Of a DNA stretch of 30,298 nucleotides, positions 1 to 27,232 are shown piece by piece. A model generated the notes under the pieces. It made no database searches and had not been told where the DNA came from. It saw only the letters and a list, made by a program, of their open reading frames with translations. The position numbers and the translations under genes were made by a program. How positions within the stretch are numbered: position 1 is the first letter of the stretch; every line of letters begins with the position of its first letter. The stretch is from Desulfobacterales bacterium (GTDB lineage: Bacteria; Desulfobacterota; Desulfobacteria; Desulfobacterales; JAHEIW01), in NCBI GenBank assembly GCA_020348305.1, contig CP070746.1, positions 2,507,788-2,538,085 on the forward strand, given 5' to 3'.

Positions 1-455
1 CGCCCGTGGATGCCATCACGTGTTGGTCTTACAATTTCAGACATATCCGTCCACATGGAATCAAAACCATGACCAGAAAATTTTCCTTGGTACCCTGCTC
101 CGGAAACCGGTACCGCGGCTGTTTCAGCCTGAAGCCAGGTGGTTTGAATAATTTCTGGCGTCCAGTACTGATTCCCCAGCCGCTCATACTCAGGGTTGAT
201 CGTAAGGCTCAAAAGGCCTTTTGTGCAGTCCTGCACGCATGAAAAGCATCCCATGCAGTTGAAAAACAGGGCGTCGACGCTATCCAGATTTCGAATATAG
301 GTTGACTCCTCACGGTAACGATCATAGACACATGCCTTCTTTACACAGTTATGGCAATTGGCGCAGTCTTCACGCCAGTCCACAACGCCAAATTTGCCAA
401 CACGTGGCAGTCGGGGGGGAACAGGGGTTGTATGAATATGATATCTCTTTGGCAT
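1..455 (-). CDS. Ferredoxin-domain/FMN-type glutamate synthase subunit (archaeal-type GltB-like), 5' part only; continues beyond window start
   Basis: The ORF was absent from the supplied track because it has no stop inside the window, so it was translated by hand. ATG at 455 (reverse complement of 'cat' at 453-455), with AAGGTGAAGG about 8 nt upstream. Translation: MPKRYHIHTTPVPPRLPRVGKFGVVDWREDCANCHNCVKKACVYD...NCMGCFSCVQDC...GYQGKFSGHGFDSMWTDMSEIVRPTRDGIHG, with no stop down to position 1. Two Cys clusters resemble 4Fe-4S ferredoxin motifs, and the tail resembles the N-terminal region of the FMN-binding glutamate-synthase domain family. Assignment rests on recalled family features, not a search. 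Confidence 0.45.
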   Translation of the reverse strand, partial: MPKRYHIHTTPVPPRLPRVGKFGVVDWREDCANCHNCVKKACVYDRYREESTYIRNLDSVDALFFNCMGCFSCVQDCTKGLLSLTINPEYERLGNQYWTPEIIQTTWLQAETAAVPVSGAGYQGKFSGHGFDSMWTDMSEIVRPTRDGIHG

Positions 456-743: not shown

Positions 744-1649
744 TTATAGCCCTGCAGCATTGATCACATCAGGCACAACCGCCTCTTTTCCGCCGGAGAT
801 AATGTGTATCCCTCTTAGCCCTTTAATACCTTTGATCCTTTTAACTGTTTCAGCACATATAGCCAGGCCCTCTTTCTTCTGGGCGTCTTCGTCGCCCACT
901 TGTTTCATGCGTTCAACAACCTTGCCCAGGGCACTGAAATCCGTGTACTTCTCTTTCAGTCTTTCTGCTTCTGTCACGCCTTCGATGGGCATCACGCCTG
1001 CCAGGATGGCTGTTTGTTCAGTAATACCTTCTTTTCGGGCGGCTTCAATCCACTGCTGAAATGCATCGATATCAAACACGGCCTGGGTCTGAATAAAGGT
1101 CGCACCAGCGGCAACCTTTTTTACCAGCCTGATGATATTCAATTCCATCGGTTTCAGGTCCGGATTTGCCGCAGCGCCCACAAGTACCGGAAATCTTCCC
1201 TCGATCTGGGTACCATTCAGGAGTATTCCCTCCGCGTTCATCTTCTTAACCGCTGCAATAAGCTGAATCGAGTCAATATCATAAACATTTGAGGACTCAG
1301 GGCTCAAGGTCAGTGCCTGGTGGTATCCGGATAGGCACAACACATTCCTGATTCCCAAAGATACCGCACCAAGCAAGTCCGACTGAATCGCAATACGATT
1401 CCTGTCACGGGTTACAATCTGGTACACCGGCTCTATTCCTAATCTTTTCAGCGCAACAGAACCGGCAAGGCTGGACATGACGGGCCCATGAGGATTATCG
1501 GCCACATTGACAGCCGTCAGCCCGGAATTAAAAAAGCGTTTCACCTTCTCGACAGCTGAACTGTCGGCACTTGGCTTTGGCAGGTATTCGGCGGTAACAA
1601 TGAAGCTGCCGGCTTCTATCTGACTTGCGAGTTGACTGTCATTCTCCAT
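744..1649 (-). CDS. metF: 5,10-methylenetetrahydrofolate reductase (acetogen/SRB-type MetF)
   Basis: 301-aa ORF whose sequence matches the MTHFR fold family (TIM-barrel type motifs ...LCLSGYHQ..., ...IQTQAVFD...). It lies in the conserved hdrCBA-mvhD-metV-metF gene context known from Moorella and Desulfobacterium. Confidence 0.85.
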   Translation of the reverse strand: MENDSQLASQIEAGSFIVTAEYLPKPSADSSAVEKVKRFFNSGLTAVNVADNPHGPVMSSLAGSVALKRLGIEPVYQIVTRDRNRIAIQSDLLGAVSLGIRNVLCLSGYHQALTLSPESSNVYDIDSIQLIAAVKKMNAEGILLNGTQIEGRFPVLVGAAANPDLKPMELNIIRLVKKVAAGATFIQTQAVFDIDAFQQWIEAARKEGITEQTAILAGVMPIEGVTEAERLKEKYTDFSALGKVVERMKQVGDEDAQKKEGLAICAETVKRIKGIKGLRGIHIISGGKEAVVPDVINAAGL

Positions 1650-1699: not shown

Positions 1700-2152
1700 T
1701 TAGTTTTTCGGCACAACCGCTGCGCCAATGGTGCCGCTTCCTACAGGCACCGTCTTGGAGGACGCATAGTTTCTTATCCGTGTACAGAGATGTTCGATTT
1801 CGCCGGCGATCTGTTCCACTGCGCCTTCTTTATCAAGATGGGTGACTTGCATGCGTTCCCTGCCCAGCCCTGTTTCCTCAAGAAGAGCACGCACGGCTTG
1901 CGCTCGCTTGTGCGCCCGTAGATTTCCTTCAAGGTGTCTGCATTCACCCTTGGGACACGTTATCAAAACCGCACCGTCGGCCCCGGTTTCAAAAGTCTTG
2001 AGCAGATAAATAAGTTCCAACTTACCGGAACAGGGCAAACTGACGGTCTTTAACAGGTCATTCCCCCGTTGGCCGCAACACTGCCTCAAGTCCTCAATGT
2101 CAAGGCTGTTGGAGCAGTAAAAAATGTATATTTTCAAAGGTCGATCTGGCAT
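1700..2152 (-). CDS. mvhD: MvhD/FlpD-like [2Fe-2S] electron-transfer protein (methyl-viologen-reducing hydrogenase delta-subunit family), copy 2
   Basis: 150-aa ORF with KIYIFYCSNS...CCG...LPCSGKLE...GADGAVLITCPKGECRHLEGN. It is paralogous to the ORF at 3057-3509. Confidence 0.8.
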   Translation of the reverse strand: MPDRPLKIYIFYCSNSLDIEDLRQCCGQRGNDLLKTVSLPCSGKLELIYLLKTFETGADGAVLITCPKGECRHLEGNLRAHKRAQAVRALLEETGLGRERMQVTHLDKEGAVEQIAGEIEHLCTRIRNYASSKTVPVGSGTIGAAVVPKN

Positions 2153-2391: not shown

Positions 2392-3060
2392 TTAGATCCT
2401 ATGATCTTCACGAACAATAACACGGCATCCGCCGTCAAGGTTCATGCGCCAGTTCTTGGGCTGCTCTATCTTCCTGAGTCTGTCTAACTGGCCGATGCCC
2501 TTCAGCCGCTTATAAATAAGCTGCCAGGCGCATGAAAGGTCAGGTCGGACTTCGCAGCGATCCTCCCGGGAACCGCCGCATGGTCCGTTCAACATGTGCT
2601 TTGCACATCGGGTAATCGGGCAAATACCGCCATATTGATGTAGAACACACGACCCGCAAGCGGCGCATTTTTCGGCCCAAAGTCCCCTTTCTTCGAGTAT
2701 GCCGATAAAGGCCGTGTTTAAGCCGGGATAAACCGGCTTTTCAGCGTAACGTTCGGCAACCGCCTGAACACCGGCTCCGCATCCCAGAGATAGTATCACA
2801 TCATATTTTTCGATAGTTTCAGCAGCTTCTTCAATAAAAACATTGTCACATTGGCGCTCAATGGTAAGTTCGCCAATTTCGAAATCAAGCTCTTGAACAT
2901 TTGATGCGATACGCAATGCCGAAGAAATAATACTCACCTCGCGCTCTCCCCCGGCGAGACATACGGCAACACATGTGCCGCATCCCAGAACCAGGATCCT
3001 TTTGTTTCCTTTTAATATTTCAACAAGTTCAGGTATGCGTTTTCTTTGTGCAACTATCAT
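2392..3060 (-). CDS. metV: MetV-type Cys-rich MTHFR C-terminal-domain protein (small subunit associated with MetF)
   Basis: 222-aa Cys-rich ORF (GCGTCVAVC, CAACGSC, CPITRCAKHMLNGPCGG, CEVRPDLSCAW) positioned between mvhD and metF as in the Moorella thermoacetica hdrCBA-mvhD-metVF cluster. Its start overlaps the mvhD stop by 4 bp (ATGA). Confidence 0.7.
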   Translation of the reverse strand: MIVAQRKRIPELVEILKGNKRILVLGCGTCVAVCLAGGEREVSIISSALRIASNVQELDFEIGELTIERQCDNVFIEEAAETIEKYDVILSLGCGAGVQAVAERYAEKPVYPGLNTAFIGILEERGLWAEKCAACGSCVLHQYGGICPITRCAKHMLNGPCGGSREDRCEVRPDLSCAWQLIYKRLKGIGQLDRLRKIEQPKNWRMNLDGGCRVIVREDHRI

Positions 3061-3509
3061 CTATGGATCTCCTGTTTGACATTTACATGGTCCGACCTCA
3101 CGGGATTGGGTCCCAGCTTGCGAACAGTTTCAATCATGTCTTTAACTGTTTCTGCAAAAACGGTCCCCATGGCAGCTGAGATATTCACCATTCGCAGACG
3201 CTTTCTTTCTAAACCGCTTTCGGACAGAAGTTCACGGGCATAATTTACCCGGCGTTTGGCCATGAGATTGCCTTCGATAAAATGGCAGCTGCCCTCTTCG
3301 CAACCGGCCACAAGAACGCCGTCAGCGCCATATTCAAAAGCCCTCATGAAATATTCAACCTCCAGCTTACCGGTACAGGGAGTACGAATAATTCGGATAT
3401 TCGTCGGATATTGAAGACGCATGGAACCAGCCAGGTCCGCGGCTGCATATGCACAATAATGACAGCAAAAGGCAACAATTTTAGGCTCAAATGGATTTGC
3501 ACGCATCAT
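3057..3509 (-). CDS. mvhD: MvhD/FlpD-like electron-transfer protein, copy 1
   Basis: 150-aa ORF with KIVAFCCHYCAY...TPCTGKLEVEY...GADGVLVAGCEEGSCHFIEGN, the canonical MvhD Cys pattern. It lies immediately downstream of hdrL. Confidence 0.8.
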   Translation of the reverse strand: MMRANPFEPKIVAFCCHYCAYAAADLAGSMRLQYPTNIRIIRTPCTGKLEVEYFMRAFEYGADGVLVAGCEEGSCHFIEGNLMAKRRVNYARELLSESGLERKRLRMVNISAAMGTVFAETVKDMIETVRKLGPNPVRSDHVNVKQEIHR

Positions 3510-3742: not shown

Positions 3743-6700
3743 TCACGCGGCTGTCTCTGTTTTTTGGGTTGAGGCTGCATCACTTAAAGAATGGAGCAGA
3801 TTGTCCAACATTACATTAAAATGCTTGGCCTCAAAATGGTTGAGCTGGATTGCACGGGCAGGACATTCCGACGCACAGATGCCGCATCCCATGCAATTGG
3901 CGACAGCAATTTCCGCTTTATGATCAGCGTTAACAAACGGAGCACCATAGGGACATGATTGAACACACGTCATGCATGCAATGCACTTGCTCTGGTCAAC
4001 CCTGCAAATCTGAGCACCGACTTCGAGGTGCGTCCTTGAAAGTACTGTAGCGGCACGGGCAGCTGTGGCACGGGCTTGAGAAATGTTTTCATCAATAAAT
4101 TTTGGTGAATGAGCAAGACCGCACACAAAGATACCCTCTTTGGCAAAGTCAATCGGCCGCAGCTTAAGGTGCGCCTCAACATAAAAACCGTCCGCATTTA
4201 ACGGCACCTTGAGCATATCGGCAATCTTTGTGTTATCTTCAGATGCACTTATGCCGGTGCTCAGCACAACCTTATCTGCTTCTATTTCAATAGTCTCAGG
4301 AAAGTCCGGGCTGTCAAACGTAACCCAAAGACCATCTTCTTCTGAAACCACGGGCGGTTTCTCCGCACTGTAACCAATAAAAACAACACCATTTCTTCGG
4401 GCCTCCTGGTAGTATTTCTCGCGGAAACCGTATGTCCTGACGTCCCTGTATAGGACGAAAACATTGGCATCAGGTGCTTTTGTTTTAATGCTCAATGCAT
4501 TCTTGATCGCCATCGAACAGCATATGCGGCTGCAGTAGGCCCGCTCTTTGTTGCGTGAGCCCACACACTGGATCATAACGATATTTTGCCCCGCTCCTGA
4601 AAATCGGTCGGCATGCAGCTGGTCTGCAAGTTCATGCTGTGTCATGACATGATCCGATTTGCCGTAACGGTATTCCCCTGTTTCGGCCCGCCCGGCTCCG
4701 GTGGCAACAATGATGGCCCCACACGGAGTCTCTGTTTGCTGACCCTTTTGCGAAAGCCTGATATTAAACTTACCGATATGCCCGGCAACAGCCTTCACTT
4801 CTGTCTCGAGATGAAGATCAATATTGGGATGATTCTCCACGCGCTGGATGAGATCCGATGTAAAACCGGAAATGTCATCATGCTCAAGCGTCCCATGGAT
4901 GTCTAAAAGATGCCCTCCCAGCGAACCGGACCGTTCAACAAGGTGAACATCAAAACCCTGGTCTGCCAGTGAAAGCGCGGCGGTCATTCCGCTAAGACCA
5001 CCGCCGATCACAAGGCCCGTTTGATTAATTTCAAGGGACTCGCCCTTCAGAGGTGAAAGCAGACGCGCCCTTGCAATTGACATCCTTGCAAGCTCAATGG
5101 CTTTTGAGGTGGCGGATTCCGGTTCAGATGAATGCACCCATGAGCACTGATCCCTGATATTGGCAAGCTCAAACAAATATGGGTTTAAGCCGGCTTCACG
5201 CAACGTTTCCCGGAATAAAGGCTCATGTGTACGGGGGGTACAGGAGGCAACCACGATACGATTCAGCCGGTGTCTGTGAATCGTTTCCTTGATATCTGAC
5301 AGGCTGGTATCAGAACAGGCGAACATTGAGTGTGTGGCCATAACAACATCCGGCTCACCGCAAACAGCTGCGGTCACTTTCTCAACATCAACTACAGAGG
5401 CGATATTCATACCGCAATGGCACACGAACACGCCGATTCGCGATTCTTCATCAGTTACGTCATGTTCGGCAGGATATTGCTTTCTGGCGGTAAGTGTATT
5501 CCTGGCCCCAGCCAGCAATTCCATTGACACGGATGCTGCTGCGCTTGCCTGTGTCACGGTTTCGGGAATATCCTTGGGTTCCTGAAACGCCCCAGCAACA
5601 AACACACCGGGACGTGATGTTTCAAGCGGATACAGCCGGTCTGTTGCGCAGAATCCAAATTCATTCAGCTCGATTCCAAGACGGGAAATGGTTTGCGAGA
5701 CGGAAGTTTTTGGATCAAGGCCCACGGTCAGGACAACGAGGTCAAAATCACGTTCTTCGAATTCGAAGTTGTCATTCACAAAACGGAGTCTGAGATCCTT
5801 TGTCCCGGGCATTTCGACAATACGTGAGGGCATGCTCTTCATGTACTGGATGCCGTCCATGCTTCTGGCACGCTCGTAATACGGATCAAAATCTTTGCCA
5901 AACGCCCGGATGTCCATGTAAAAAATGGCTGCCTCAAGCCCAGTCACGTGTTCCCGGGCAACCATCGCCTGCTTGGTCGTCGCCATGCAGCATATTGATG
6001 AACAGTATTCATTGCCGCATCTGGAGTCACGTGAACCCACGCATTGAATCCAGGCAATTTTGCGGGCCTCACGACCGTCTGACAGGCGCAAAACATGCCC
6101 CTGAAACGGCCCGGCTGCAGACAGCATTCTTTCAAACTGGACACTGGTGATCACGTTTTGATAACGATCGAAACCATACTCTGCCTTTATCTCTGCACGG
6201 AATTCATCGAAGCCCGGTGCAAGTATGACGGAACCGACGTCAAGCTCGATGATTTCTTCCGCCATCTCGTGATCAATTGCATTTTTCTCACAGGCTTCCG
6301 CACACGCCCCGCATTCCGAACACAAAGCGCAGTTCAGGCATCTTTCGGTTTCAGCCAGTGCGTCCTTTTCGGAAAAACATTTCTCGATTTCAAAAAATGC
6401 CTTAACCCGCTCCTGAGCCGGCAGTTCCTTTGCCATGGCACGCGGCTTATTTTCAATATTTTGTATGGAAGGGAGGTTATTTTCGGGAATCGATTTAAGG
6501 GCGTCCTCGAAACGCTGGATTGCCGCACTTTTGCCCTGCAGATAGTAATCTATGGACTCCGCTGCGCGCTTGCCTGCGGCAACCGCAGCGATGACAGTTG
6601 CGGGGCCGGTGACAATATCGCCGCCGGCAAAAATACCCGGCATGTCTGTCACACCATTTTTATCAGCTACAATATTGCACCACGTGTTTACCGGCAATCC

Positions 6701-8257
6701 AGGGGCTGATTCCCACAAAAGCCTATCCGGCTGGCTTCCAACGGCCAGAATCACCATATCCGCTTCTATCTCAAACTCCGATCGGTCTATTGGCACGGGC
6801 CGCTTTCTTCCGGATTCATCGGGTGTATCCAGTTTCATCCGGATGCATTTTACCCTGTGCAGCCGCCCGTTTTGATTACCGATAAATTCAACCGGAGCGG
6901 TAAGGAACCGAAAATAAATCCCCTCCTCCACGGCATGTTCCACTTCCGCCTTCATGGCCGGCATTTCAGCAGCTGTCCGGCGGTAGACAATGCTGACTTT
7001 TTCAGCACCCAAACGTGCTGCGCAACGGGCGGCATCCATGGCAACATCACCGCCGCCGATCACCACCACATGCCCATTTATGGAGGGTTTATCATTCTCG
7101 GCTACGGCTTTGCGGAGAAAATCCAACCCCTGTTCCACACCGTCAAGATTTTCTCCCTTCACGCCAATGGATGTCCCTTTCTGGGTTCCGATACCAACAA
7201 ATACCGCGCTAAAATCCGCTTGCAAATTTTCAATAGTTATGTCTTTTCCGACACGGCAGTTGTAGACAAGGCTAACGCCTTTGCGACGGATCAGCTCAAC
7301 TTCATAATCAAGAATATTTGCCGGGAGCCTGTATTCAGGAATACCCCAGCGCAGCATCCCGCCCGCTGCCGATGATGCTTCAAATATCGTTACCGCATAC
7401 CCGCGATCCGCGAGATCCTGGGCAGCGGTCAAACCGGAGGGTCCGGCACCGATAATGGCAACTTTTCTGGCATCCACCGCCGGTGTTTTTTCCTTTGGGA
7501 GGGCGATGATACCGGCTTCAACCATTTCCATTTCTTTGTCAGCGGCAAACCGTTTCAACTGTCTGATGGCTACCGCAGAATCAAACCGGCTACGGGTACA
7601 TGCACTTTCGCATGGATGCGTGCATACGCGGCCGCATATGGCTGCCAGGGGATTGCGTTCCCTAATCAGTTTGACCGCCTTGACATACTCTTTTTTCTTT
7701 ATCAGCTGGATATATCCCTGGACATTTATGTTTGCCGGACATGCGATTTTACAGGGTGCATGACCCAACTTGAAAATTTCTGGGACATTGGGTATGGCCT
7801 GCACCGAATGCTTGGCGATTGCCTTGCGGGTTCCCAGACTGCGGTTAAAGCGGTCCTTTATATCAACCGGACAGATCTCGGTGCAGTCACCACAATCATT
7901 GCAAACATGCTCGTCAACATATCGCGGATACTTTTTGATGATTGCTGTAAAATTTCCCGGTTGACCCTCAATCTGAATCAATTCAGATAAGGTATGAATC
8001 TCGATATTCAGATTGCGGTCACACTCGACAAGTTTGGGTGAGACAATGCAGGTTGCACAGTCACCGGTTGGAAAAGTCTTGTCCAGCTGGGACATCATGC
8101 CGCCAATGGAAGCTGAACGTTCGATGATGTAGACCTTGAAACCGGAGTTGGCCAAATCAAGCGAGGCCTGAACCCCTGCAATGCCGCCCCCCTGGACAAG
8201 CACTGCGCCTATTTTTTTATTTCCACCTATTCGCATATCATCTGTATTTTCTGACAC
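3743..8257 (-). CDS. hdrL: HdrL: giant HdrA-like flavoprotein with two tandem HdrA modules and an inserted GltD/NfnB-like NAD(P)H:FAD oxidoreductase domain
   Basis: 1504-aa ORF. N-terminal FAD-binding GAVLVQGGGIAGVQASLDLA with a CxxC cluster. Multiple ferredoxin motifs (CNDCGDCTEICP, CLNCALCSECGACAEAC, CIACMTCVQSCPYG, CMGCGICASECP). An internal GltD-like region (CKIACPANINVQGYIQL; KVAIIGAGPSGLTAAQDL; HVVVIGGGDVAMDAARCAARLG). Two HdrA signature stretches (WIQCVGSRDSRCGNEYCSSICC and MIQCVGSRNKERAYCSRICC). The start is an apparent GTG at 8257; an in-frame ATG 7 codons downstream is an alternative. Confidence 0.85.
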   Translation of the reverse strand: MSENTDDMRIGGNKKIGAVLVQGGGIAGVQASLDLANSGFKVYIIERSASIGGMMSQLDKTFPTGDCATCIVSPKLVECDRNLNIEIHTLSELIQIEGQPGNFTAIIKKYPRYVDEHVCNDCGDCTEICPVDIKDRFNRSLGTRKAIAKHSVQAIPNVPEIFKLGHAPCKIACPANINVQGYIQLIKKKEYVKAVKLIRERNPLAAICGRVCTHPCESACTRSRFDSAVAIRQLKRFAADKEMEMVEAGIIALPKEKTPAVDARKVAIIGAGPSGLTAAQDLADRGYAVTIFEASSAAGGMLRWGIPEYRLPANILDYEVELIRRKGVSLVYNCRVGKDITIENLQADFSAVFVGIGTQKGTSIGVKGENLDGVEQGLDFLRKAVAENDKPSINGHVVVIGGGDVAMDAARCAARLGAEKVSIVYRRTAAEMPAMKAEVEHAVEEGIYFRFLTAPVEFIGNQNGRLHRVKCIRMKLDTPDESGRKRPVPIDRSEFEIEADMVILAVGSQPDRLLWESAPGLPVNTWCNIVADKNGVTDMPGIFAGGDIVTGPATVIAAVAAGKRAAESIDYYLQGKSAAIQRFEDALKSIPENNLPSIQNIENKPRAMAKELPAQERVKAFFEIEKCFSEKDALAETERCLNCALCSECGACAEACEKNAIDHEMAEEIIELDVGSVILAPGFDEFRAEIKAEYGFDRYQNVITSVQFERMLSAAGPFQGHVLRLSDGREARKIAWIQCVGSRDSRCGNEYCSSICCMATTKQAMVAREHVTGLEAAIFYMDIRAFGKDFDPYYERARSMDGIQYMKSMPSRIVEMPGTKDLRLRFVNDNFEFEERDFDLVVLTVGLDPKTSVSQTISRLGIELNEFGFCATDRLYPLETSRPGVFVAGAFQEPKDIPETVTQASAAASVSMELLAGARNTLTARKQYPAEHDVTDEESRIGVFVCHCGMNIASVVDVEKVTAAVCGEPDVVMATHSMFACSDTSLSDIKETIHRHRLNRIVVASCTPRTHEPLFRETLREAGLNPYLFELANIRDQCSWVHSSEPESATSKAIELARMSIARARLLSPLKGESLEINQTGLVIGGGLSGMTAALSLADQGFDVHLVERSGSLGGHLLDIHGTLEHDDISGFTSDLIQRVENHPNIDLHLETEVKAVAGHIGKFNIRLSQKGQQTETPCGAIIVATGAGRAETGEYRYGKSDHVMTQHELADQLHADRFSGAGQNIVMIQCVGSRNKERAYCSRICCSMAIKNALSIKTKAPDANVFVLYRDVRTYGFREKYYQEARRNGVVFIGYSAEKPPVVSEEDGLWVTFDSPDFPETIEIEADKVVLSTGISASEDNTKIADMLKVPLNADGFYVEAHLKLRPIDFAKEGIFVCGLAHSPKFIDENISQARATAARAATVLSRTHLEVGAQICRVDQSKCIACMTCVQSCPYGAPFVNADHKAEIAVANCMGCGICASECPARAIQLNHFEAKHFNVMLDNLLHSLSDAASTQKTETAA

Positions 8258-8285
8258 CTGACACCTGGTAACCTGAAACCTCTGA
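8251..8285. repeat. About 34-bp motif CTGACACCTGACACC..CTGAAACCT (copy A, overlapping the hdrL start codon)
   Basis: CTGACACCTGACACCTGGTAACCTGAAACCTCTGA has a tandem GGTGTCAG x2 on the coding strand. It is about 76% identical to copy B at 3661-3694. Confidence 0.45.
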
Positions 8286-8355
8286 TCTGTCTTCTGTCTT
8301 CTATCCTCTGTCCTCTTTCATCTTTCCTCTGTCATCTGTCATCTGCCTTCTGCCC
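8286..8355 (-). repeat. Polypurine low-complexity intercistronic spacer (coding strand) between hdrB and hdrL
   Basis: The coding strand is about 70 nt of almost pure A/G with reiterated GACAGA / AGAGGA units (CAGATGACAGATGACAGAGGAAAGATGAAAGAGGACAGAGGATAGAAGACAGAAGACAGATCAGAGG). Confidence 0.5.
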
Positions 8356-9228
8356 TCAGACCACTGCACTCACCGCATGAATAACACATGACGGCGATAC
8401 CATCAGCTTTCGCAATCCTAAAGCGTCCATAGAAATGCCCAGGCAAAGACCGAGTAATTGTGAAATATAGACAATCGGCATATCATAATGCCGGCCTTTT
8501 TCGTTGTTAATATCACTTTGTCGCATATCAAGGTTTGCCTGGCACAGGGGACATGCCACGGCGATGCAGTCCGCACCGGCATCTTTGGCCATACCGATGA
8601 TCGAATCAGCCAGATGGACAACGACATCCGTTCTTGTAAGAGCCAGACCGGCACCGCAGCATTCAACCTTGTGGGGCCAGTCGAGGCTTTCCCCGCCCAT
8701 CACGTTGATGAGGCGATCCATGGAAACCGGATTTTCCGGGTTGTCAAACTGGGTAATCTCTTGGGGGCGAACCAGCAGGCAGCCGTAGTAGCATGCCACT
8801 TTAAGTCCGCTTAATGAATGCGTGAATTTATCCTGAAGGAAATCGATTCCGACATCCTCCAGCAGTATTTCTATGAAGTGACGCACATTAACCGAACCGT
8901 CATAATCACGGCCGATGGTTGCACCGATTTGTTTGCGTATTTCGGTATGGTTGACAACTTCATGGTTTGTCATTTTCAGCCGGCTGAAGCATTCGGCACA
9001 GTTGACAACCATATCAAGACCCATCTCCATCGCCAGTATTAGGTTAAAAGCCGGGAGAGATGCGGCTAGGAGCCGATCCGTCTGGTGCGCCGGTGTAGCA
9101 CCGCAGCATGACCATCCATCGGGTTCGATGAGTTCAATACTGAGTCTGCGGGCAACCGCGATACTTGACGAGTGAAGGTCACGTGCGGTCGATTCGGCTG
9201 AACATCCAGGATAATACGCGTATTTCAT
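8356..9228 (-). CDS. hdrB: Heterodisulfide reductase subunit B-like (two CCG domains)
   Basis: 290-aa ORF with two Cys-rich CCG-type motifs (YYPGCS...WSCCGATP...VNCAECF and YYGCLLVRP...VECCGAGL...VACPLCQ). Confidence 0.85.
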   Translation of the reverse strand: MKYAYYPGCSAESTARDLHSSSIAVARRLSIELIEPDGWSCCGATPAHQTDRLLAASLPAFNLILAMEMGLDMVVNCAECFSRLKMTNHEVVNHTEIRKQIGATIGRDYDGSVNVRHFIEILLEDVGIDFLQDKFTHSLSGLKVACYYGCLLVRPQEITQFDNPENPVSMDRLINVMGGESLDWPHKVECCGAGLALTRTDVVVHLADSIIGMAKDAGADCIAVACPLCQANLDMRQSDINNEKGRHYDMPIVYISQLLGLCLGISMDALGLRKLMVSPSCVIHAVSAVV

Positions 9229-9239
9229 TTCCGGATTCC

Positions 9240-9794
9240 TTATTTATGGCTGACGCTGTCGAAAATTCTTTTGACAGTCTTTTTATCTGCCCCCCGGGGT
9301 GGCAAAATAGCGATTTTCCGCTTTTTCAGCATGGATGGAAACTTATCCATGTCATTCATAAACGTTAACGTACCCATTTTATAAGCGGCAATCATGACAA
9401 GATCATATGTACGGCCAAACATGTTCACCGTCTTTAAAAAAGCCCGGTTAAAAAGCGGAATGTCGCCTTTTGGTTTTGCCGCTTGCCTTTTTACTGCAAG
9501 AACCCGCAAGGCATCCATCACCGATGCCATGTCAATGCCCATCGGGCAACGTGCAAAACATGTCTCACATGAGGAACAGATCCATATGATATCACTGCTT
9601 AAGATTTCGTCTCCGGCCCCCAGCTGCAGTCGCCTAATAATTTCAGAAGGTGGGGATTTTGTATGCCCGGATACCGGACAGCCGCAGGAACATTTTTTAC
9701 ATTGATAACATTCGCTGAGATCAACGCCTGCCAGCTCTTCAACAGCACTGATAATATTTTTAACTGCTTTTCCTTTTTTTATCCGAATTGTCAT
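9240..9794 (-). CDS. hdrC: Heterodisulfide reductase subunit C-like (2x[4Fe-4S])
   Basis: 184-aa ORF with CYQCKKCSCGCP and CSSCETCFARCP ferredoxin-type motifs. There is a 34-bp gap to the upstream ORF and an 11-bp gap to hdrB. Confidence 0.8.
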   Translation of the reverse strand: MTIRIKKGKAVKNIISAVEELAGVDLSECYQCKKCSCGCPVSGHTKSPPSEIIRRLQLGAGDEILSSDIIWICSSCETCFARCPMGIDMASVMDALRVLAVKRQAAKPKGDIPLFNRAFLKTVNMFGRTYDLVMIAAYKMGTLTFMNDMDKFPSMLKKRKIAILPPRGADKKTVKRIFDSVSHK

Positions 9795-9828: not shown

Positions 9829-12540
9829 TTAAAGAATATCCCCGACGGTTTCCTGCTCTTCAACTTCCACTTTTAAGGCAATGCGCTCTTCTTCTTTCAT
9901 CTCTGCGCCCACACTGGCAGGAACAACTTTTCGATAGACTTTTTCCGGAGGGAGCCTTTCCCCATTCACGGTCAATAGGTCATCGATTGTTATTTGAAAG
10001 AGTCTTTGATTTTCCATCAGATAAGGCAGAATTAATGCCCAGTCCTCCTCGTTCAGCGGCAGAAACATACCGCCGTTTAACTGCTCTTCGATAACATATC
10101 CATCAGGATCGCGTATAAAAATCGCTCCGCCGGAAGCCAGCGAAAACAGGTTGCTGCCCGGATACGGCTCAGACATTGAGACTAAATTGCCGTCATCATC
10201 GAATTGAACACCGTTTAATATAACAAAGCCGCCACCCCTCAGAGGGTCGCCGGCCATAAATGATTCGGCCAAAAAATCAAGACATGTGCCGTTAATAACT
10301 ACCCGTGGTCTGCCAACGGAATTGATCAGCGGCCGGCCGGCGGCATTACCCATTACATAAACCTCCCCCCCCTTGGCGCCGTATAAGAATGTCTGCCCGA
10401 CATCTCCATAAATAACCATTTTTCCGCTTTTGATGATCTGGCCGAGCTGGTCCTGGCCGTTGTTGTGCACCGTGATGGTCAGACCGTCAAGGCCGGAGCC
10501 GAGATAGTCCCCCGAGCTGCCGTACACATCTATGGTCACTTCCTCTGTTTGCGGTCCGAGACCACACCCCACGTATCTCTGGCCTGAACAACCAAAGCAG
10601 ATAAAATTCCGCCATCCTTTGCGATAGGCATCCACCAGGAGTGCTGCATCACATTCATCACCTTCGGGAGGAAACCGATCGGCATTTATAACAAGCGTGG
10701 TTTCTTTTGCCTGCGGGGCCCTTAAGAAGGCACGGGTATTATAATCGATTCGTCGAAACGCACTTTCGTCGCGGTCGTTTGCTTGAATTGAAGGCAGTTT
10801 GTCAAACAAATGATCAAGTTCGCTGCGCACAATATGAAGCATGTGGCTCCGTTTTTTAGTGCCGATAGCGTATCTGAGATCATTTAAAAAGGTCAGGGCA
10901 TTAATCGCCGTTGCAGTGTTCTTCACGTCCTTTGCCCGCTCCCGGATCGTCCTGCAGACCGTCTGAAAATCATCGAAGCCCCATCTGGGAATGTTGTCAC
11001 GCATATACTCAACGAGCGCCTGCCCACCACCTGTTGCATATATATGTTGTATACGCTTGTCAGCACCATTACCCGAGGCGGATGAGACGGATACTTCTTT
11101 TGTAAAATCAAACGATTCGGTCTGCTTGGGCATGGGTACCGGGACCCCGAATTTATCTGTACATGTCATCCGGTAATTTCCGCTGGAATCCTTTTCCAGA
11201 TTGAATATAAATGCTCCGCCATCTGTATGGCTGCCGCCGCGCGCATTCCAGTATCGGTCAGCAACAGGACATATGCGTTTATCTTCCTTGGACAGGCTTA
11301 ACAGGGTTGCATCGATGGCCTGTTTTTCCGATCCAATCAGGCCAACCTGAACCTCTCCTTCTGAAAAGGCAAATACCTGGGGGCGCAGCATTGCTGTGTC
11401 TGTAATTCCCAGAAGCTGGAATCTTTCTTTTCGCGGAATATTACGGGCAATAATAAAAAACCACGGGCCATCCGGCGAACCGTGTATATGTGTGGCTTGT
11501 ACGGCACGATAGACATTTTGTCTTTCTTCGGGGAGACGGTCAAAGTCGAGTTCACTCGTGGGTGCAAGAGCCTCAATAATATATTCCAGTGGATAATGAT
11601 ACGTCCGATCAAGCAGGTCAAACATCAGCGCGGATACCTCTGTGTCGGTAAGAAACTGCGGATATATGTGGCGCTGCCTAAGGTATTCGCAAACAGAATG
11701 ATAATTGGCAAAGTCACCGTTATGGACAAGCGCCATGTTGATGCCTGCAAAAGGATGCGCACCGCCCGGGTGCCAGACCCGGCCCTTGGTGGGAAAACGC
11801 TGATGTCCGAGCCACGCATGTGCACATAGGTCTTCAATCTTGTAATAGGTTACGATCGCCTCTGCATAGCCGACAACTTTCAGGATCATTATGTTTCGCC
11901 CATGGGAGAGGACAAATGCCCTCTGTTCGCCCAAGGAGGCGTAATATTCCTGATTCAGCCCAAAGCTGTTCTGGTTTACAAACTCATCTTCCGCCTCACG
12001 CCGTGGGAACTTTTCCAATTCATTTTGCGTTATGAAGGCATCGAGCAATTCCGGCTTGACACGAACAAAATAACGCCAAACATTCGGCGGTTTAACTTCA
12101 AGGCCCTTGACTGATTTCCAGTCGTCAACGGTATCTAATTCACTGGAAGCGGCCACATCAAAATTGCGTGTAATAAATTTATCTTCAAGTTCTTCCCGGA
12201 CCTCACGGTCAAGAAAGGCGATGTGAAGCATATAGTATTCATCCAAGATCTCACGGCTGACACCGAGTTGATCCGGGATAAACCCGACAGCTGCAACTCC
12301 GCCGCCCTTGCCATTACCCCTGTTGTGCATCAATCTTGATGGCTCATAAATGTGACGACCGGATACAGGTTCTGTGCAGCAAAAGCCAACAACACCGCAA
12401 CCGCCTTCTTCCTCGCTCTTTGACACCGTCACCGGAAACTTTAAACCATCAACTCGGCGTTTTTTGGAATTCAATAATTTTTGTATGAAATCCCTATGCA
12501 TTGTTTGCTTCACAACATCAGTGTAGTTAGCATGCTTCAA
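9829..12540 (-). CDS. Archaeal-type glutamate synthase fusion protein: class-II glutamine amidotransferase domain plus C-terminal GXGXG domain
   Basis: 903-aa ORF. The Ntn-type amidotransferase signature GGCGVVGF lies about 45 residues from the N-terminus, implying a propeptide. The C-terminal region GDYLGSGLDGLTITVHNNGQDQLGQ...GDVGQTFLYGAKGGEVYVMGNAAGRPLINSVGRPRVVINGTCLDFLAESFMAGDP matches the glutamate-synthase alpha-subunit GXGXG domain. No FMN-binding or central domain is present. Confidence 0.75.
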   Translation of the reverse strand: MKHANYTDVVKQTMHRDFIQKLLNSKKRRVDGLKFPVTVSKSEEEGGCGVVGFCCTEPVSGRHIYEPSRLMHNRGNGKGGGVAAVGFIPDQLGVSREILDEYYMLHIAFLDREVREELEDKFITRNFDVAASSELDTVDDWKSVKGLEVKPPNVWRYFVRVKPELLDAFITQNELEKFPRREAEDEFVNQNSFGLNQEYYASLGEQRAFVLSHGRNIMILKVVGYAEAIVTYYKIEDLCAHAWLGHQRFPTKGRVWHPGGAHPFAGINMALVHNGDFANYHSVCEYLRQRHIYPQFLTDTEVSALMFDLLDRTYHYPLEYIIEALAPTSELDFDRLPEERQNVYRAVQATHIHGSPDGPWFFIIARNIPRKERFQLLGITDTAMLRPQVFAFSEGEVQVGLIGSEKQAIDATLLSLSKEDKRICPVADRYWNARGGSHTDGGAFIFNLEKDSSGNYRMTCTDKFGVPVPMPKQTESFDFTKEVSVSSASGNGADKRIQHIYATGGGQALVEYMRDNIPRWGFDDFQTVCRTIRERAKDVKNTATAINALTFLNDLRYAIGTKKRSHMLHIVRSELDHLFDKLPSIQANDRDESAFRRIDYNTRAFLRAPQAKETTLVINADRFPPEGDECDAALLVDAYRKGWRNFICFGCSGQRYVGCGLGPQTEEVTIDVYGSSGDYLGSGLDGLTITVHNNGQDQLGQIIKSGKMVIYGDVGQTFLYGAKGGEVYVMGNAAGRPLINSVGRPRVVINGTCLDFLAESFMAGDPLRGGGFVILNGVQFDDDGNLVSMSEPYPGSNLFSLASGGAIFIRDPDGYVIEEQLNGGMFLPLNEEDWALILPYLMENQRLFQITIDDLLTVNGERLPPEKVYRKVVPASVGAEMKEEERIALKVEVEEQETVGDIL

Positions 12541-12822: not shown

Positions 12823-13263
12823 GTGAACGAAGTGGAACTAAAGATTATTAGAGCGCTTAACGAGAATTCCAGAAAAAGCTTTCGCGAAATAGCCAAGGAG
12901 GTCAAGACGTCTACTCCTGTGGTGATCAATAAAATTAAAAAGCTCGAAGAAATAGGTGCCATAAAGGGCTATATTCCTGTATTGGACCCGGAATACTTCG
13001 GCTATACCCTCATGGCCGTGGTTGCCTTGCGCATTTCTCATGGGAAGCTTATTGAAGCACAGGAAAAGATCGCAGAAGATCCGCATACGCTGGCTATTTA
13101 TGATGTGACCGGAGAGTGGGATTCCATAGTAATTGCCCATTTTAAAGGAAGGAAAGATTTGAACAATTTTATCAAGAATATTCTTGTCCATAACAATGTA
13201 GATAGAACAGTGACCCATATCGTACTCAATGTCGTCAAGGACGAACGCAGACTCGTCGTCTGA
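12823..13263 (+). CDS. lrp: Lrp/AsnC-family transcriptional regulator
   Basis: 146-aa ORF with a GTG start preceded by AAAGGAGGAG. The N-terminus has an HTH (IIRALNENSRKSFREIAKEVKTSTPVVINKIKKLEE) and the C-terminus an AsnC-type ligand-binding (RAM) domain. Confidence 0.85.
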   Translation: MNEVELKIIRALNENSRKSFREIAKEVKTSTPVVINKIKKLEEIGAIKGYIPVLDPEYFGYTLMAVVALRISHGKLIEAQEKIAEDPHTLAIYDVTGEWDSIVIAHFKGRKDLNNFIKNILVHNNVDRTVTHIVLNVVKDERRLVV

Positions 13264-13468: not shown

Positions 13469-13484
13469 TGGCATACCTGTTGCA
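13469..13484 (+). promoter_or_regulatory. Sigma-54 (-24/-12) promoter upstream of the P-II-like gene
   Basis: TGGCAT-ACCTG-TTGCA has exact consensus spacing (GG to GC = 12 nt). It lies about 140 bp upstream of the 13623 start, in a nitrogen-assimilation context with a sigma-54 activator gene nearby. Confidence 0.5.
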
Positions 13485-13622
13485 GAATACCATCCCATTT
13501 ATTTGTCTTCTTGCCCGATAGATAAATATTGACCACAGGCTGGCACGAGTCCATTTACTTAAATTATTAGCTGTACAATCTTTCAGGTTTTTACGACTGA
13601 GTAACAGAGGAGGAATTTATTA

Positions 13623-13967
13623 ATGAAATTGGTCGTAGCGATGATTCAGCCCCATAAATTGACTGATGTCAAGCAGGCATTATTTGACGAAGAGGTCTAT
13701 GCCATGACGGTCAGCAATGCCTTGGGATGTGGCAGCACGATGGGGTATATGGAAACCTACAGAGGTGTGAGGCAAGAAGTAAATCTTCTGAAAAAAGTGC
13801 GACTTGAAATTGCCGTCAATGATGATTTCGTTGAACGCATCATTGAGGCAATTATAAAAGGCGCACGAACGGGTAACATGGGAGAATGCCATATCCCAAA
13901 TTGCAAGAGAAAACCTCGAAGGGAGTTTGAGCGGAGTTTTGGCCACATTATCGCCGGAAGAAGCTAA
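13623..13967 (+). pseudogene. P-II (GlnB-like) signal-transduction protein, C-terminally truncated and running out of frame into a flotillin fragment
   Basis: The first roughly 85 aa align with P-II ([20 protein letters not shown]...TYRG...[30 protein letters not shown]). After TG the canonical B-loop/C-terminus (GDGKIFV...RIRTGE) is replaced by [26 protein letters not shown], which is the flotillin reading frame read out of frame. A GGAGG RBS and a sigma-54 promoter lie upstream. Confidence 0.6.
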
Positions 13968-14784
13968 CAGTAATCGGTTGGAGTTTGCCGAAAAAATCGT
14001 ACAACAGACCAGAGGTGATCTCGGTCGCCTGGGTTTAGTGCTGGATACGTTTAAAATCAAACATCTCTCTGATAATGAAGGCTATCTGGATGCCATCGGT
14101 CGCAAGAAAAATGCTGAAGTCAGAAAGGATGTCGAAATCGCGGAAACCAATGCGCAAGCTGAATCAAGACAAGTGTCCGCCGAGGCCAAGCGTATCGGAA
14201 ATGTGGCCGAAGCGGAGGCCAACGTAACCATTGTCGAAGCCGAAAACAAGCTACGGATAAAAAAAGCGGACCTGGATGCCGAAGCCCAACGCATAGAAGC
14301 CAAAGCAAAGGTTGCCGGCAACATCGCCAGGGTCGAAGAAGAACAGAAACTGGAAACCCAAAGAGTTGCCTTGAATCAGAGTAAGTATGAGGCTGACGTC
14401 GTGGTGCCGGCTCGGGCAGAAAAAGAAGCCATGGAATTGAAAGCCATTGGCGACGCATCCACTATCGTAGAAAACGGCAAAGCGACAGCAGAAGCAGTGA
14501 ATCTGATGCGTCAGGAATGGGAAAAAGAAGATACCCGGGAGCTTTTCTTAATCCAGCAACTTCCGGATATCCTCGATAAAGTCACCAGTGTGGTTTCCGA
14601 AAATCTTGCCATCGAAAAGGTTACGATACTGGACAGCGGCAACGGGCAGGGCATGCCCACCTATGTCAAAGGCATTGCCGGTTCTATCGTTGCTATTTTC
14701 GAGCAGATTAAAAACGCCACCGGCCTGGATGTACCTGAAATCCTGAGAGCCAAAGGAAAATCCACGGCTGAAATTACCGGATAG
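13858..14784 (+). pseudogene. Flotillin (FloT/YuaG-like SPFH family) lacking about the N-terminal 130 aa (TM segment plus first half of the SPFH domain)
   Basis: Frame 1 is open from 13858. The translation ...[83 protein letters not shown]... aligns with the middle of B. subtilis FloT (EAREVLEGHLRSILGSMTVEEIY...[37 protein letters not shown]). It is followed by an EA-rich coiled-coil and a C-terminal ...ILDSGNGQG... tail. There is no ATG; the track used TTG at 13927. Confidence 0.65.
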
Positions 14785-14798
14785 AAAGGGAATCGAAC

Positions 14799-16130: not shown

Positions 16131-16343
16131 AAAGGAGACGATATCACTGGCCTTGGAATTATTCGCCCAGAATAAATTCTCGCCGGGCACTACCGGCGAC
16201 GGCCTTTTCTTCGATTGATATAAAGTGATATTTTCATGGGCGTCCATTTCGTATCTCTCGTGTTTTTCTTATTAAAATCAATCTATCGGATAATTTCGTT
16301 GCTTTTTTTAGGAAAACTTTTTAGGAGTGACATTTCATATTGA

Positions 16344-16712
<369 letters not shown>

Positions 16713-16769
16713 AATATAAAACATTTAGATACTTTTTCAAGAAAAGAAAATAATAGGGAGGAAAAACGT

Positions 16770-18182: not shown

Positions 18183-18241
18183 TTGCTCCTCAAAATAACA
18201 GCAGTCCGCTGATAGTAGTGGGAAAAGGAAAAACCGATAAG

Positions 18242-19307: not shown

Positions 19308-19351
19308 TAAACAATTCCCTACACAGCTACACAGCCCTAAGACAGATTCCC

Positions 19352-19450
19352 TATTTCATCGAATACATGTATAATCACAAGCTACTTCACTCCGCTATTG
19401 GTTATCGTCCTCAATGTGAATTTGAGATGATGCTGGAATCAACTCCAAAT
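19352..19450 (+). pseudogene. Remnant of the 3' end of a DDE (IS3/rve-type) transposase gene
   Basis: Frame-2 translation ...YFIEYMYNHKLLHSAIGYRPQCEFEMMLESTPNPCQNTLIT* carries the conserved C-terminal tail of integrase-core transposases (YN..R.HSalGY.sP.eFE). The upstream reading frame degenerates immediately at the IS-like element boundary. Confidence 0.4.
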
Positions 19451-19546
19451 CCCTGTCAAAACACTCTGATCACATAGCTGTGATCTTTGCAGTTTTATGG
19501 GGTCATTCCAACCTGCCCTTTAATGTGCGACCCTTATTTTTCGTTC

Positions 19547-20155: not shown

Positions 20156-20169
20156 ATTCAGTAAAACCT

Positions 20170-26949: not shown

Positions 26950-27232
26950 GATGAACCTCCAGCAACTTTTAATTAACTTTGAACTAATGCGGTATATGAT
27001 GTCAAACAGCCTAAAGAAGAAACAGGGATAAGTTGACATAATGCCAATTGATTTGGGTAGGTTTGGACTGAAAAAATAAAGATCTTTTGGAGTAATTTAA
27101 GAAAGACCTGTCATGACTGTTTGCGATCACAACACCCCCTCCGCGAGACCTTGAAGGGTATTGACAGCATGAACTCCGTAGTTAGCTTTGTTTTAGTTAA
27201 TGGAGCGTTGGATGAACCCTTCCAGCGTCCAT

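Follow-up and report, generated by a model that had tools for sequence, protein, structure and literature searches.

A large HdrA-type protein with an embedded GltD/NfnB-like unit is encoded among metVF and split glutamate synthase genes in a Desulfobacterales genome

HdrL, a large homologue of HdrA (the A subunit of heterodisulfide reductase), is encoded in a 30,298-nucleotide stretch of a Desulfobacterales genome (contig CP070746.1, positions 2,507,788 to 2,538,085; the whole stretch is called the window hereafter), and its architecture is already known. In the MetFV-HdrABC-MvhD complex of Moorella thermoacetica, HdrA is a protein of 1487 amino acids (aa) and 162.8 kDa whose N-terminal ferredoxin/thioredoxin reductase (TrxR)-like domain is interrupted by GltD, whose second unit has no inserted ferredoxin, and for which three flavin adenine dinucleotide (FAD) sites, one NAD(P)H site and a Glu/Lys (E/K) pair in both TrxR units were predicted (Kremp, Roth and Mueller 2022, PMC9430772). 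A preliminary description of the window, made from the sequence without database searches, had called such proteins poorly characterised, which is corrected by these reports (PMC9430772, PMC5861303). For the same complex, PMC5861303 attributes an NADH:benzyl viologen activity and two FAD in HdrA to the biochemical work of Mock et al. 2014, and describes the second partner of this methylene-tetrahydrofolate (methylene-THF) reductase complex as unidentified; the methylene-THF couple is given there as -200 mV (PMC5861303). Which electron partner Hdr-type methylene-THF reductases use, and what they contribute energetically, has been an open question since 2014.

Related forms of HdrA have been described in other organisms. 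Fused HdrAs with complementary Cys197 and N-terminal domain were regarded as intramolecular heterodimers, the Moorella HdrA being counted among them, and an insertion of NfnB in HdrA was reported in the same study apart from the tandem fusion (Chadwick et al. 2022, PMC9012536). In a 2025 survey, the fused HdrA was named type II and the HdrA with a GltD insert type III, and the insert was proposed to block the ferredoxin site and to supply electrons from NAD(P)H instead (PMC12054007). The name HdrL comes from Desulfobacterium autotrophicum (Strittmatter et al. 2009, PMC2702500). With the architecture published, the protein alone is of modest interest, and the interest lies in its gene context.

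In the HdrL of the window, two HdrA-type flavoprotein modules that differ from each other are fused around a GltD/NfnB-like insert predicted to bind NADPH. The protein is a derived HdrA and not a canonical one, because the inserted ferredoxin and the C-terminal ferredoxin each occur once per polypeptide. Its gene belongs to a set of ten, encoding MvhD2, MetF, GluS1, GluS2, a glutamine amidotransferase (GATase)/GXGXG protein, HdrC, HdrB, HdrL, MvhD and MetV, which includes the parts of a split glutamate synthase. The conserved association of HdrL with the split glutamate synthase appears to be new, and no description of a glutamate synthase-Hdr-MetVF linkage was found in open-access papers. We consider it likely that HdrL acts as an NADPH-fed, flavin-based bifurcating core which serves MetVF and probably the split glutamate synthase.

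The hdrL gene (3743..8257, minus strand), assigned by Pfam, NCBIfam and PDB sequence matches, is one uninterrupted open reading frame (ORF) of 1504 codons counted from a GTG at 8257. Codon 8 is an ATG (nucleotide 8236), and since the homologue alignments begin only at residue 7-15, translation probably starts there, giving a protein of 1497 aa. The NCBIfam family HdrA2 matched in five stretches (E=2.6e-287) and the GltD-type family PRK12771 at residues 166-674 (E=1.6e-166), the best match among solved structures was to the Methanothermococcus thermolithotrophicus HdrA 5odc_A (four stretches, E=9e-176), NfnB (4ylf_B) followed with E=1e-104, and Pfam recognised Fer4_20, Pyr_redox_2 and C-terminal 4Fe-4S dicluster domains. 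An AlphaFold2 model covering residues 8-1207 only, built on an alignment of 54 sequences, had a predicted local distance difference test (pLDDT) score of 80.9 and a predicted template modelling (pTM) score of 0.72, with low confidence confined to the cluster-binding loops. This model was superposed on the HdrA TrxR core 8rwn_A with a template modelling (TM) score of 0.88, the insertion being spanned, and its insert on NfnB (TM 0.80, 44% identity) and on the glutamate synthase (GOGAT) beta subunit (TM 0.78, 34% identity). The hidden Markov model, PDB and model matches thus agree with the preliminary description in placing two HdrA-type FAD modules and a GltD/NfnB-like NAD(P)H unit in one polypeptide, and the segments it had quoted are all present in the translation: the HdrA signature segments IQCVGSRDSRCGNEYCSSICC at residues 737-757 and IQCVGSRNKERAYCSRICC at residues 1229-1247, and, from the GltD-like unit, CKIACPANINVQGY at residues 169-182, GAGPSGLTAA at residues 270-279 and GGGDVAMDAA at residues 401-410.

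The protein was mapped by residue-level alignment to 5ODC and by motif conservation across 117 full-length homologues, to which the statements on invariance refer. The N-terminal part of module 1 (residues 15-160; 7778..8215, minus strand) aligns at residues 19-157 to 5odc_A 146-284 and carries the FAD-binding GGGIAG at residues 23-28, a DCATC motif in which C67 and C70 correspond to Cys194 and Cys197 of 5ODC HdrA, and a CxxCxxCxxxCP motif (C119, C122, C125 and C129) with which the inserted ferredoxin domain begins its first half, all six cysteines being invariant. The C-terminal part of module 1 (residues 640-935; 5453..6340, minus strand) aligns at residues 645-863 to 5odc_A 292-511 and contains RCLNC (C640, C643), the ferredoxin motif C646, C649, C652 and C656 that makes up the other half of the inserted domain, E709 and K762. 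Module 1 has neither an N-terminal domain nor a C-terminal ferredoxin.

Both of these are found on module 2. Its N-terminal MvhD-like domain (residues 937-1070; 5048..5449, minus strand) aligns at residues 937-1103 to 5odc_A 2-168 with 174 bits and has the invariant C946, C948, C981, C1006 and C1038. The TrxR-like FAD domain (residues 1071-1410; 4028..5047, minus strand), identified by the 5ODC alignment, NCBIfam and motif conservation, contains GGGLSG at residues 1085-1090, E1209 and K1252, and has no DCxxC, hence no Cys197 equivalent, and no inserted ferredoxin. The C-terminal 2x[4Fe-4S] ferredoxin (residues 1411-1480; 3818..4027, minus strand) is matched by Pfam Fer4 at residues 1419-1471, residues 1346-1478 aligning to 5odc_A 505-640, and its cysteines are C1425, C1428, C1431, C1435, C1455, C1458, C1461 and C1465. 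The two FAD-binding GxGxxG motifs (G23-G28 and G1085-G1090) are invariant, as are the cluster motifs of both TrxR domains (C739/C752/C756/C757 and C1231/C1242/C1246/C1247).

Taken jointly, the two modules hold one copy of each element that is doubled in the HdrA homodimer, with the Cys197 equivalent and the inserted ferredoxin on module 1 and the N-terminal domain and the C-terminal ferredoxin on module 2. C70 and the N-domain cysteines, the elements of the cluster completed by Cys197, are likewise found on separate modules by alignment. As judged from these alignments, the modules are complementary halves of a pseudo-heterodimer, that is, a predicted asymmetric HdrA dimer in a single polypeptide, and the count of invariant cysteines would provide ligand sets for about nine [4Fe-4S] clusters, next to three flavin-binding folds (two HdrA TrxR-like, one GltD-like). 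The two modules are identical at 29% of positions only, indicating an old fusion of two HdrA types, and a recent internal duplication is ruled out on the same ground. The preliminary description had two HdrA modules, each with its own FAD and ferredoxin motifs, and a GltD-like unit between them. Both modules are indeed of the FAD type, and GxGxxG occurs twice, but neither module is complete, the inserted ferredoxin belonging to module 1 only and the C-terminal ferredoxin to module 2 only; the GltD-like unit exists, but it sits within the inserted-ferredoxin domain of module 1.

These data also bear on whether the second module could be a degenerate duplication that binds no cofactor, an idea that might be drawn from its missing inserted ferredoxin and DCxxC and from the variability of E1209 in distant relatives. 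The parts absent from module 2 are exactly those present on module 1, its GxGxxG, four-Cys cluster motif, five N-domain cysteines, eight ferredoxin cysteines and K1252 are invariant or nearly so, and the low identity between the modules indicates that HdrA types of different kinds were fused long ago and have been maintained by selection. A degenerate second module is ruled out by this conservation of ligands and motifs, and we give the idea practically no credence. The check named in the preliminary description, conservation of the Cys ligands and of both FAD sites, gave a positive result, both CVGSR...C...CC motifs and both GxGxxG motifs being kept in the homologues, and neither a single HdrA-type FAD site nor a degenerate second module, the outcomes it had named as refuting, was found.

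Glu356/Lys409 is a signature by which HdrA flavins are flagged as bifurcating (Appel et al. 2021, cited after PMC9430772). In the window protein the signature is present in both modules, as E709/K762 and E1209/K1252. In 19 representatives at 39-50% identity, nearly all ligands persist and the E/K pair of module 1 is still invariant, but the pair of module 2 is variable. The flavin of module 1 is thus the safer candidate, and by this signature the best one, for the bifurcating site.

The GltD/NfnB-like insert (residues 161-639, about 480 aa; 6341..7777, minus strand) splits the inserted-ferredoxin domain of module 1. It is supported by PF14691 (Fer4_20, E=1e-20), PF07992 (Pyr_redox_2, E=2e-61), PRK12771, the NCBIfam family gltA, 4ylf_B and the fold match, with TM 0.78-0.80 to NfnB/NfnI-L and GOGAT beta. 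C169, C173, C208, C212, C216 and C220 of the Fer4_20 region are invariant, as are C640/C643, and the FAD site GAGPSG and the NAD(P)H site GGGDVA occupy residues 270-275 and 401-406. GltD proteins of the StnC/Nfn-ABC type align through the RCLNC stretch (C640/C643). A circular permutation that moved the GltD N-terminus there is therefore a less simple reading than a feature of that GltD subtype.

In the nucleotide site of the window HdrL, the beta2 end reads Y425-R426-R427 (window 6977-6985) and is of the NADPH type. Among the homologues, YRR was found in 52 and x-L-E in 65, which suggests, by general Rossmann-fold rules, putative NADPH and NADH subclades in a family that is highly conserved in other respects; clusters linked to glutamate synthase include proteins of either form. 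This split of motifs offers an easy biochemical prediction.

The full-length architecture was found in more than 120 clusters (90% identity clustering) at 63-93% identity, carried by Thermodesulfobacteriota, Chloroflexota, Spirochaetota, Latescibacterota, Verrucomicrobiota and others, with the closest relatives in Thermodesulfobacteriota. An exhaustive search with residues 8-1207 gave 7077 relatives at E<=1e-30, including 19 further 50%-identity representatives with the full architecture of about 1470-1530 aa, as well as shorter variants with module 1 and GltD only or with tandem modules only. Three full-length relatives at 43-46% identity stand in other operon contexts: L016 in a Moorella-like Wood-Ljungdahl context, with AcsE-like protein, MetV, MetF, FolD and a PyrK/NfnA-like protein and no glutamate synthase genes, L018 in the order acyl-CoA dehydrogenase-EtfBA-HdrCBA-HdrL, and L017 in the order HdrB-HdrL-MvhD-HdrA, in which the second HdrA-like gene encodes 978 aa. 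Because distant relatives occupy such different contexts, HdrL is seen as an NAD(P)H-linked module that can be reused, with the window falling in its glutamate-synthase-linked clade. A few close homologues, P0041 (1655 aa), P0054 and P0091 (1562 aa), are 60-150 residues longer, with extra PF01488 and PF25160 and possibly added fused domains. In the metagenome loci L006 (7001-11483) and L012 (8815-9733 and 17926-19348), HdrL, HdrB or GluS1 is represented by 2-3 ORFs, maybe owing to frameshifts, assembly errors or pseudogenes.

In the window, all genes of the cluster are on the minus strand, in the transcription order GATase/GXGXG, hdrC, hdrB, hdrL, mvhD1, metV, mvhD2, metF and GluS1. Judged by this common strand, hdrL shares an operon with hdrC, hdrB, the two mvhD genes, metV and metF, and it is closely linked to the split glutamate synthase genes. 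The first gene (9829..12540) encodes a class II (Ntn) GATase fused to a GXGXG beta-helix, corresponding to GltB domains 1 and 4 (PF13522, PF01493); in all related loci extending that far, it is the gene immediately upstream of hdrC. Its product has 890 aa with a probable ATG start at 12501, and its catalytic Cys in EGGCGVVGF together with the glutamine-site motifs HQRFPTKG, HNGDFANY and TDTEV is invariant in 121 homologues; the best fold match of its model (pLDDT 67) was GltA/GltB 7mfm_G (E=1.4e-9), followed by Ntn glutaminase domains including that of GlmS. HdrC (9240..9794), a 2x[4Fe-4S] protein, was assigned by family matches and motif conservation, and HdrB (8356..9228), with two complete CCG motifs, by two PF02754 matches and TIGR03288 (E=1.6e-61). 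Downstream of hdrL are MvhD1 (3057..3509), a FlpD-family protein with a [2Fe-2S]-type Cys motif (PF02662 E=1.5e-49, VhuD E=1.7e-47), MetV (2392..3060), the Cys-rich partner of MetF with DUF5981 (PF12225 E=3e-37), MvhD2 (1700..2152), a second and more divergent FlpD-family protein whose gene is always paired with metF (PF02662 E=6.5e-21), and the methylenetetrahydrofolate reductase MetF (744..1649; PF02219 E=2.9e-30). Four cysteines are kept in each of MvhD1 and MvhD2. Only the 5' part of GluS1 (3..455, 151 codons from the ATG 455-453; Glu_synthase family PF01645) lies inside the window, the gene crossing the left edge; its N-terminus has ferredoxin-like Cys motifs and is 81% identical to that of GluS1 in locus L010.

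The remainder of the set was read from related loci, where the 1.3-kb stretch after metF is the GluS1 gene and is followed by GluS2, a ferredoxin domain joined to a GltB flavin mononucleotide (FMN) domain. GluS2 scores against PF01645 with E=7e-90, matches GltB positions 864-1178 and has the KPGxGG, GGTGA and SGG motifs; the FMN "synthase" barrel is accordingly seen in GluS2 of the related loci, and of these two genes the window contains no more than the 151 initial codons of GluS1. The canonical [3Fe-4S] motif of GltB is C-x5-C-x4-CP, and in its place GluS2 has the four cysteines of C-x2-C-x2-C-x5-CP, so that the canonical motif is not present. A resemblance of the GATase/GXGXG/FMN triad to N-methylglutamate synthase was not supported by any family match, GluS2 scoring only against GltB and the nearby glutamine synthetase genes as type I GlnA.

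The ten genes are complete wherever enough DNA is available, in 13 loci, in the window and in two relatives at 48-50% HdrL identity. In order A, observed in Verrucomicrobiota, Spirochaetota and the locus L013 and fitted by the Chloroflexota and Planctomycetota loci, the genes run MvhD2-MetF-GluS1-GluS2-GATase/GXGXG-HdrC-HdrB-HdrL-MvhD-MetV, so that the array begins and ends with the known partners MetF and MetV and encloses the glutamate synthase genes, and genes abut or overlap. Order B, in which two blocks are swapped, is that of the Thermodesulfobacteriota, the window included. No stand-alone gltD was found inside the ten-gene cluster.

This distribution is relevant to one alternative, a plain Moorella-type methylene-THF reductase made of HdrL, HdrBC, MvhD and MetVF and acting on NAD(P)H and methylene-THF, with an independent split glutamate synthase, for example a ferredoxin-dependent one, that is merely co-transcribed or co-inherited. 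All six Moorella subunit types are encoded, and their succession hdrC-hdrB-hdrA-mvhD-metV...metF is likewise that of Moorella; L016 combines the same HdrL architecture with MetVF and FolD/AcsE but has no glutamate synthase genes, the ferredoxin-like domains of GluS1 and GluS2 could take electrons from free ferredoxin, and a canonical gltBD beside the cluster in L011 and L013 suggests a general clustering of glutamate genes. However, the linkage has been kept across several phyla and down to 48% HdrL identity despite the rearrangement of blocks, in order A the glutamate synthase genes stand between the MetF and MetV ends and the genes overlap or abut, and the split GltB has no stand-alone GltD-type subunit inside the cluster. 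We judge that such independence is unlikely, though it is the alternative to be taken most seriously.

Two related loci have further glutamate genes beside the cluster: in L011 (Spirochaetota), canonical gltB (1513 aa) and gltD (470 aa) at 15717-21670 lie directly beside the ten-gene cluster, and in L013, canonical gltB and glutamate dehydrogenase at 1-843 and 18993-20351 flank it.

The name HdrL and its fusion type, HdrA with a glutamate-synthase-like NADH site followed by mvhD, match the proteins of Strittmatter et al. 2009, and a function like that proposed for D. autotrophicum HdrL, an NADH:DsrC (bacterial heterodisulfide) oxidoreductase serving dissimilatory sulfite reduction through HdrBC, was also considered. 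The nearest relatives belong to Thermodesulfobacteriota, and with both CCG motifs of HdrB complete, a disulfide-type substrate is possible. Against this, no dsr genes occur within 30 kb, the identical cluster is found in four groups not known for sulfate reduction (Verrucomicrobiota, Planctomycetota, Chloroflexota and Spirochaetota), and the conserved partners are MetVF and the glutamate synthase parts and not DsrC. This role therefore seems very improbable.

For the NADPH-fed bifurcating core preferred here, the following electron path is proposed by analogy with the MvhADG-HdrABC structure, the Moorella MetFV-HdrABC-MvhD complex and the type III proposal (PMC9012536, PMC12054007). NADPH would reduce the FAD of the GltD unit, from which electrons would pass through two GltD clusters into the split inserted-ferredoxin clusters, and on through the N-domain cluster, with C70 of module 1 bridging, to the HdrA flavin or flavins. 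From there, one branch would lead through the TrxR-domain clusters to HdrC/HdrB and another through the C-terminal ferredoxin and the MvhDs to MetV-MetF and the methylene-THF/methyl-THF couple; in this clade, a further branch would probably reach the ferredoxin domains of GluS1/GluS2, for the conversion of 2-oxoglutarate and glutamine to two glutamate. The inserted ferredoxin domain of methanogen HdrA is the docking and exit site of ferredoxin in the 5ODC paths as summarised in PMC9012536. Since NAD(P)H sits at this exit in HdrL, it is plausibly the low-potential arm, and the mode of action may be flavin-based electron bifurcation or confurcation with NADP(H) as low-potential partner and with methylene-THF and/or the glutamate synthase reaction as higher-potential partners. 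The glutamate synthase reaction has a more positive potential than the methylene-THF couple.

A stronger form of this proposal is that HdrL is the core of one enzyme of about ten subunits, which joins the Moorella-type MetFV-HdrABC-MvhD physically to the split glutamate synthase, with NADP(H) at the former ferredoxin site; it is put forward tentatively, as a possibility which we doubt more than we believe. If it were true, the methylene-THF/methyl-THF and the 2-oxoglutarate plus glutamine/glutamate couples would be the other two arms, and the complex would be the first Hdr-linked, energy-coupled glutamate synthase and a candidate for the "second partner" of Hdr-type methylene-THF reductases, at least in this widespread clade of uncultured anaerobes. 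Such a single enzyme would couple nitrogen assimilation and one-carbon metabolism by electron bifurcation in many energy-limited anaerobes, and GOGAT would join the reactions exploited for energy conservation. If the proteins do not form one enzyme, the cluster is still a clear gene set for testing.

Several observations weigh against the proposed bifurcating core or its connection to glutamate synthase. The "bifurcation" Glu of module 2, E1209, is not kept in the wider family, and the passage of electrons by way of C70 and the N-domain cluster is predicted from alignment and analogy. With 44% identity to NfnB and 30-34% to GOGAT beta, the insert is nearer to the former, and Moorella, L016, L017 and L018 have this HdrL architecture but no glutamate synthase genes, so that the GltD insert alone is no proof of a GOGAT function. 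At least two carriers have canonical gltB-gltD next to the cluster, which is therefore not needed as their only GOGAT. GluS2 lies beyond the left edge of the window, and the physical link between the glutamate-synthase-like proteins and the Hdr/MetVF proteins is inferred from synteny only.

The weight may also be shifted in the other direction, to an Hdr-dependent glutamate synthase in which the GltD insert is the beta subunit of the split GltB and the HdrA modules, HdrBC, the MvhDs and MetVF are a bifurcating scaffold; the very exergonic reaction with NADPH would then drive the reduction of a low-potential carrier, and MetF would be accessory or recruited elsewhere. All four GltB domains and a GltD domain are contained in the ten-gene set, glutamate dehydrogenase and gltBD stand beside the cluster in other loci, and among the neighbours in the window are two GlnA, two P-II and a NifA-like activator. 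The NADPH-GOGAT reaction releases about 45-50 kJ/mol by textbook potentials, an amount that would cover ferredoxin reduction. Nevertheless, MetF and MetV are retained universally and MetF has normal scores for the methylene-THF reductase family, the insert is more Nfn-like than GOGAT-beta-like, and the adjacency of glutamine synthetase (GS) genes is not conserved at other loci. In addition, the GltD unit occupies the ferredoxin exit site of methanogen HdrA, and because it fills the inserted ferredoxin domain, no obvious ferredoxin-reducing site is left in HdrL. A glutamate synthase driving the whole assembly is thus considered quite improbable.

Upstream of the cluster and on the opposite strand lies a nitrogen-assimilation block (13469-18182, plus strand), divergent from the cluster, with a sigma-54-like -24/-12 pattern match (13469-13484), a P-II-like ORF (13623-13967), a GlnA gene (14799-16130), a P-II gene (16374-16712) and a second GlnA gene (16770-18182), all on the plus strand; by their scores, both GS genes are genuine GlnA of type I. 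The block is overlapped by an ORF at 13927-14784 with a partial match to Band_7. Divergent from the GATase/GXGXG gene, the ORF 12823-13263 (plus strand, 146 aa) was recognised by eye only as an apparent Lrp/AsnC-type winged-helix regulator (VNEVELKIIRALNENSRKSFREIAKEV...), and a Pfam scan of the ORF on the strand opposite to it gave no match. At 27464-28987 (minus strand), a GAF-AAA+-HTH sigma-54 activator scored 533 bits against the NCBIfam NifA equivalog cut-off of 528.85. This neighbourhood, with two GlnA, two P-II, the NifA-type activator and the apparent Lrp/AsnC regulator, fits a link to glutamate metabolism. As a conserved trait, GS/P-II adjacency was rejected, not being found at the other loci.

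No convincing -24/-12 sigma-54 site was found upstream of 12501, the pattern showed no overall enrichment (23 matches against 17.4 expected), and sigma-54 control of the cluster was rejected, the best site, 13469-13484 on the plus strand, belonging to the P-II/GlnA side. A sigma-70-like match upstream of the cluster at 12747-12719 is not evidence of function. An Rfam scan of the whole window, the larger intergenic gaps included, gave no match. The hdrB-hdrL spacer is for the most part taken up, at 8285-8345 and just upstream of the HdrL start, by a purine-rich tandem heptamer (GACAGAT on the coding strand) in 8.7 copies with 83% matches.

Further genes of the window, all on the minus strand, are those for a 2289-aa teneurin-like protein with TTR, FN-plug, NHL propeller and YD-shell/RHS repeats (20170-27039), for a 202-aa tetratricopeptide repeat protein after it (19547-20155), and for a 323-aa ORF with an IS200-like Y1 transposase domain and a C-terminal sigma-70 region 4/HTH (18265-19236). 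In the Verrucomicrobiae loci L009 and L010, a large NHL/HYR surface protein also adjoins the cluster.

Compared with known systems, the insert resembles NfnB/NfnI-L and kin (4YLF, 5JCA; StnC 8OH5; Nfn-ABC 9BOV), with 42-44% identity, TM 0.78-0.80, and FAD and NADPH sites and an Fe-S region in common, but it is embedded in HdrA and is not a free subunit. The cluster has no NfnA/PyrK-like partner: no gene for NfnA (PyrK-like FAD/[2Fe-2S]) was found in the window or the ten-gene cluster, a PyrK-like gene being seen only in the distant Wood-Ljungdahl-type locus L016. As in NADPH-GltBD and the archaeal-type split GltB, the amidotransferase, the FMN domain, the GXGXG helix and a GltD-like NADPH unit are all encoded; by contrast, GltB is distributed over three proteins, including a degenerate paralogue that has Fe-S motifs of its own, HdrL incorporates the GltD unit, and HdrBC, two MvhD and MetVF are interleaved.

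The type III HdrAs of ANME-1 (anaerobic methanotrophic archaea) and Bathyarchaeota (HdrA9-11) likewise have a GltD/NfnB-like unit of about 500 aa in the inserted-ferredoxin domain, for which NAD(P)H was proposed in place of ferredoxin (PMC9012536; PMC12054007). They are single-module proteins with a GXGXXG (NADH-type) motif and with CoM/CoB-type Hdr or Mvh genes alongside, whereas the window HdrL has a second HdrA module in addition to the insert. The type II HdrA3/4 of ANME also have two modules per chain, with complementary N-domain and Cys197 and with halves from different HdrA classes (PMC9012536; PMC12054007), but their N-domain is on the N-terminal module, which lacks Cys197, the reverse of the window HdrL, where C70 comes first on a module without N-domain, and they have no GltD insert. 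HdrL1-3 of D. autotrophicum HRM2 (PMC2702500) and HdrABC/HdrL of Syntrophobacter fumaroxidans (PMC5947623) are likewise large proteins in which HdrA is fused to a glutamate-synthase-like part bearing an NAD(P)H site, and mvhD comes next. Some of these HdrLs contain selenocysteine and they lie beside dsr, fdh or other hdr genes; the window HdrL has Cys in place of selenocysteine, and its partners are MetVF and the glutamate synthase parts.

The likeness to Moorella HdrA (Moth_1194) covers the length (1487 versus 1497-1504 aa), the order ferredoxin/TrxR[GltD], MvhD-like N-domain, TrxR without inserted ferredoxin and C-terminal ferredoxin, the E/K pair in both TrxR units, and the neighbours HdrC, HdrB, MvhD, MetV and MetF; the two are regarded as probable orthologues on the published description of the Moorella protein. 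The hdrCBA-mvhD-metVF unit of Moorella is flanked by acs genes. The Moorella enzyme oxidises NADH, in contrast to the NADPH-type YRR of the window HdrL, and the operon of the window differs from the published Moorella unit in having an extra MvhD and the linked split glutamate synthase genes.

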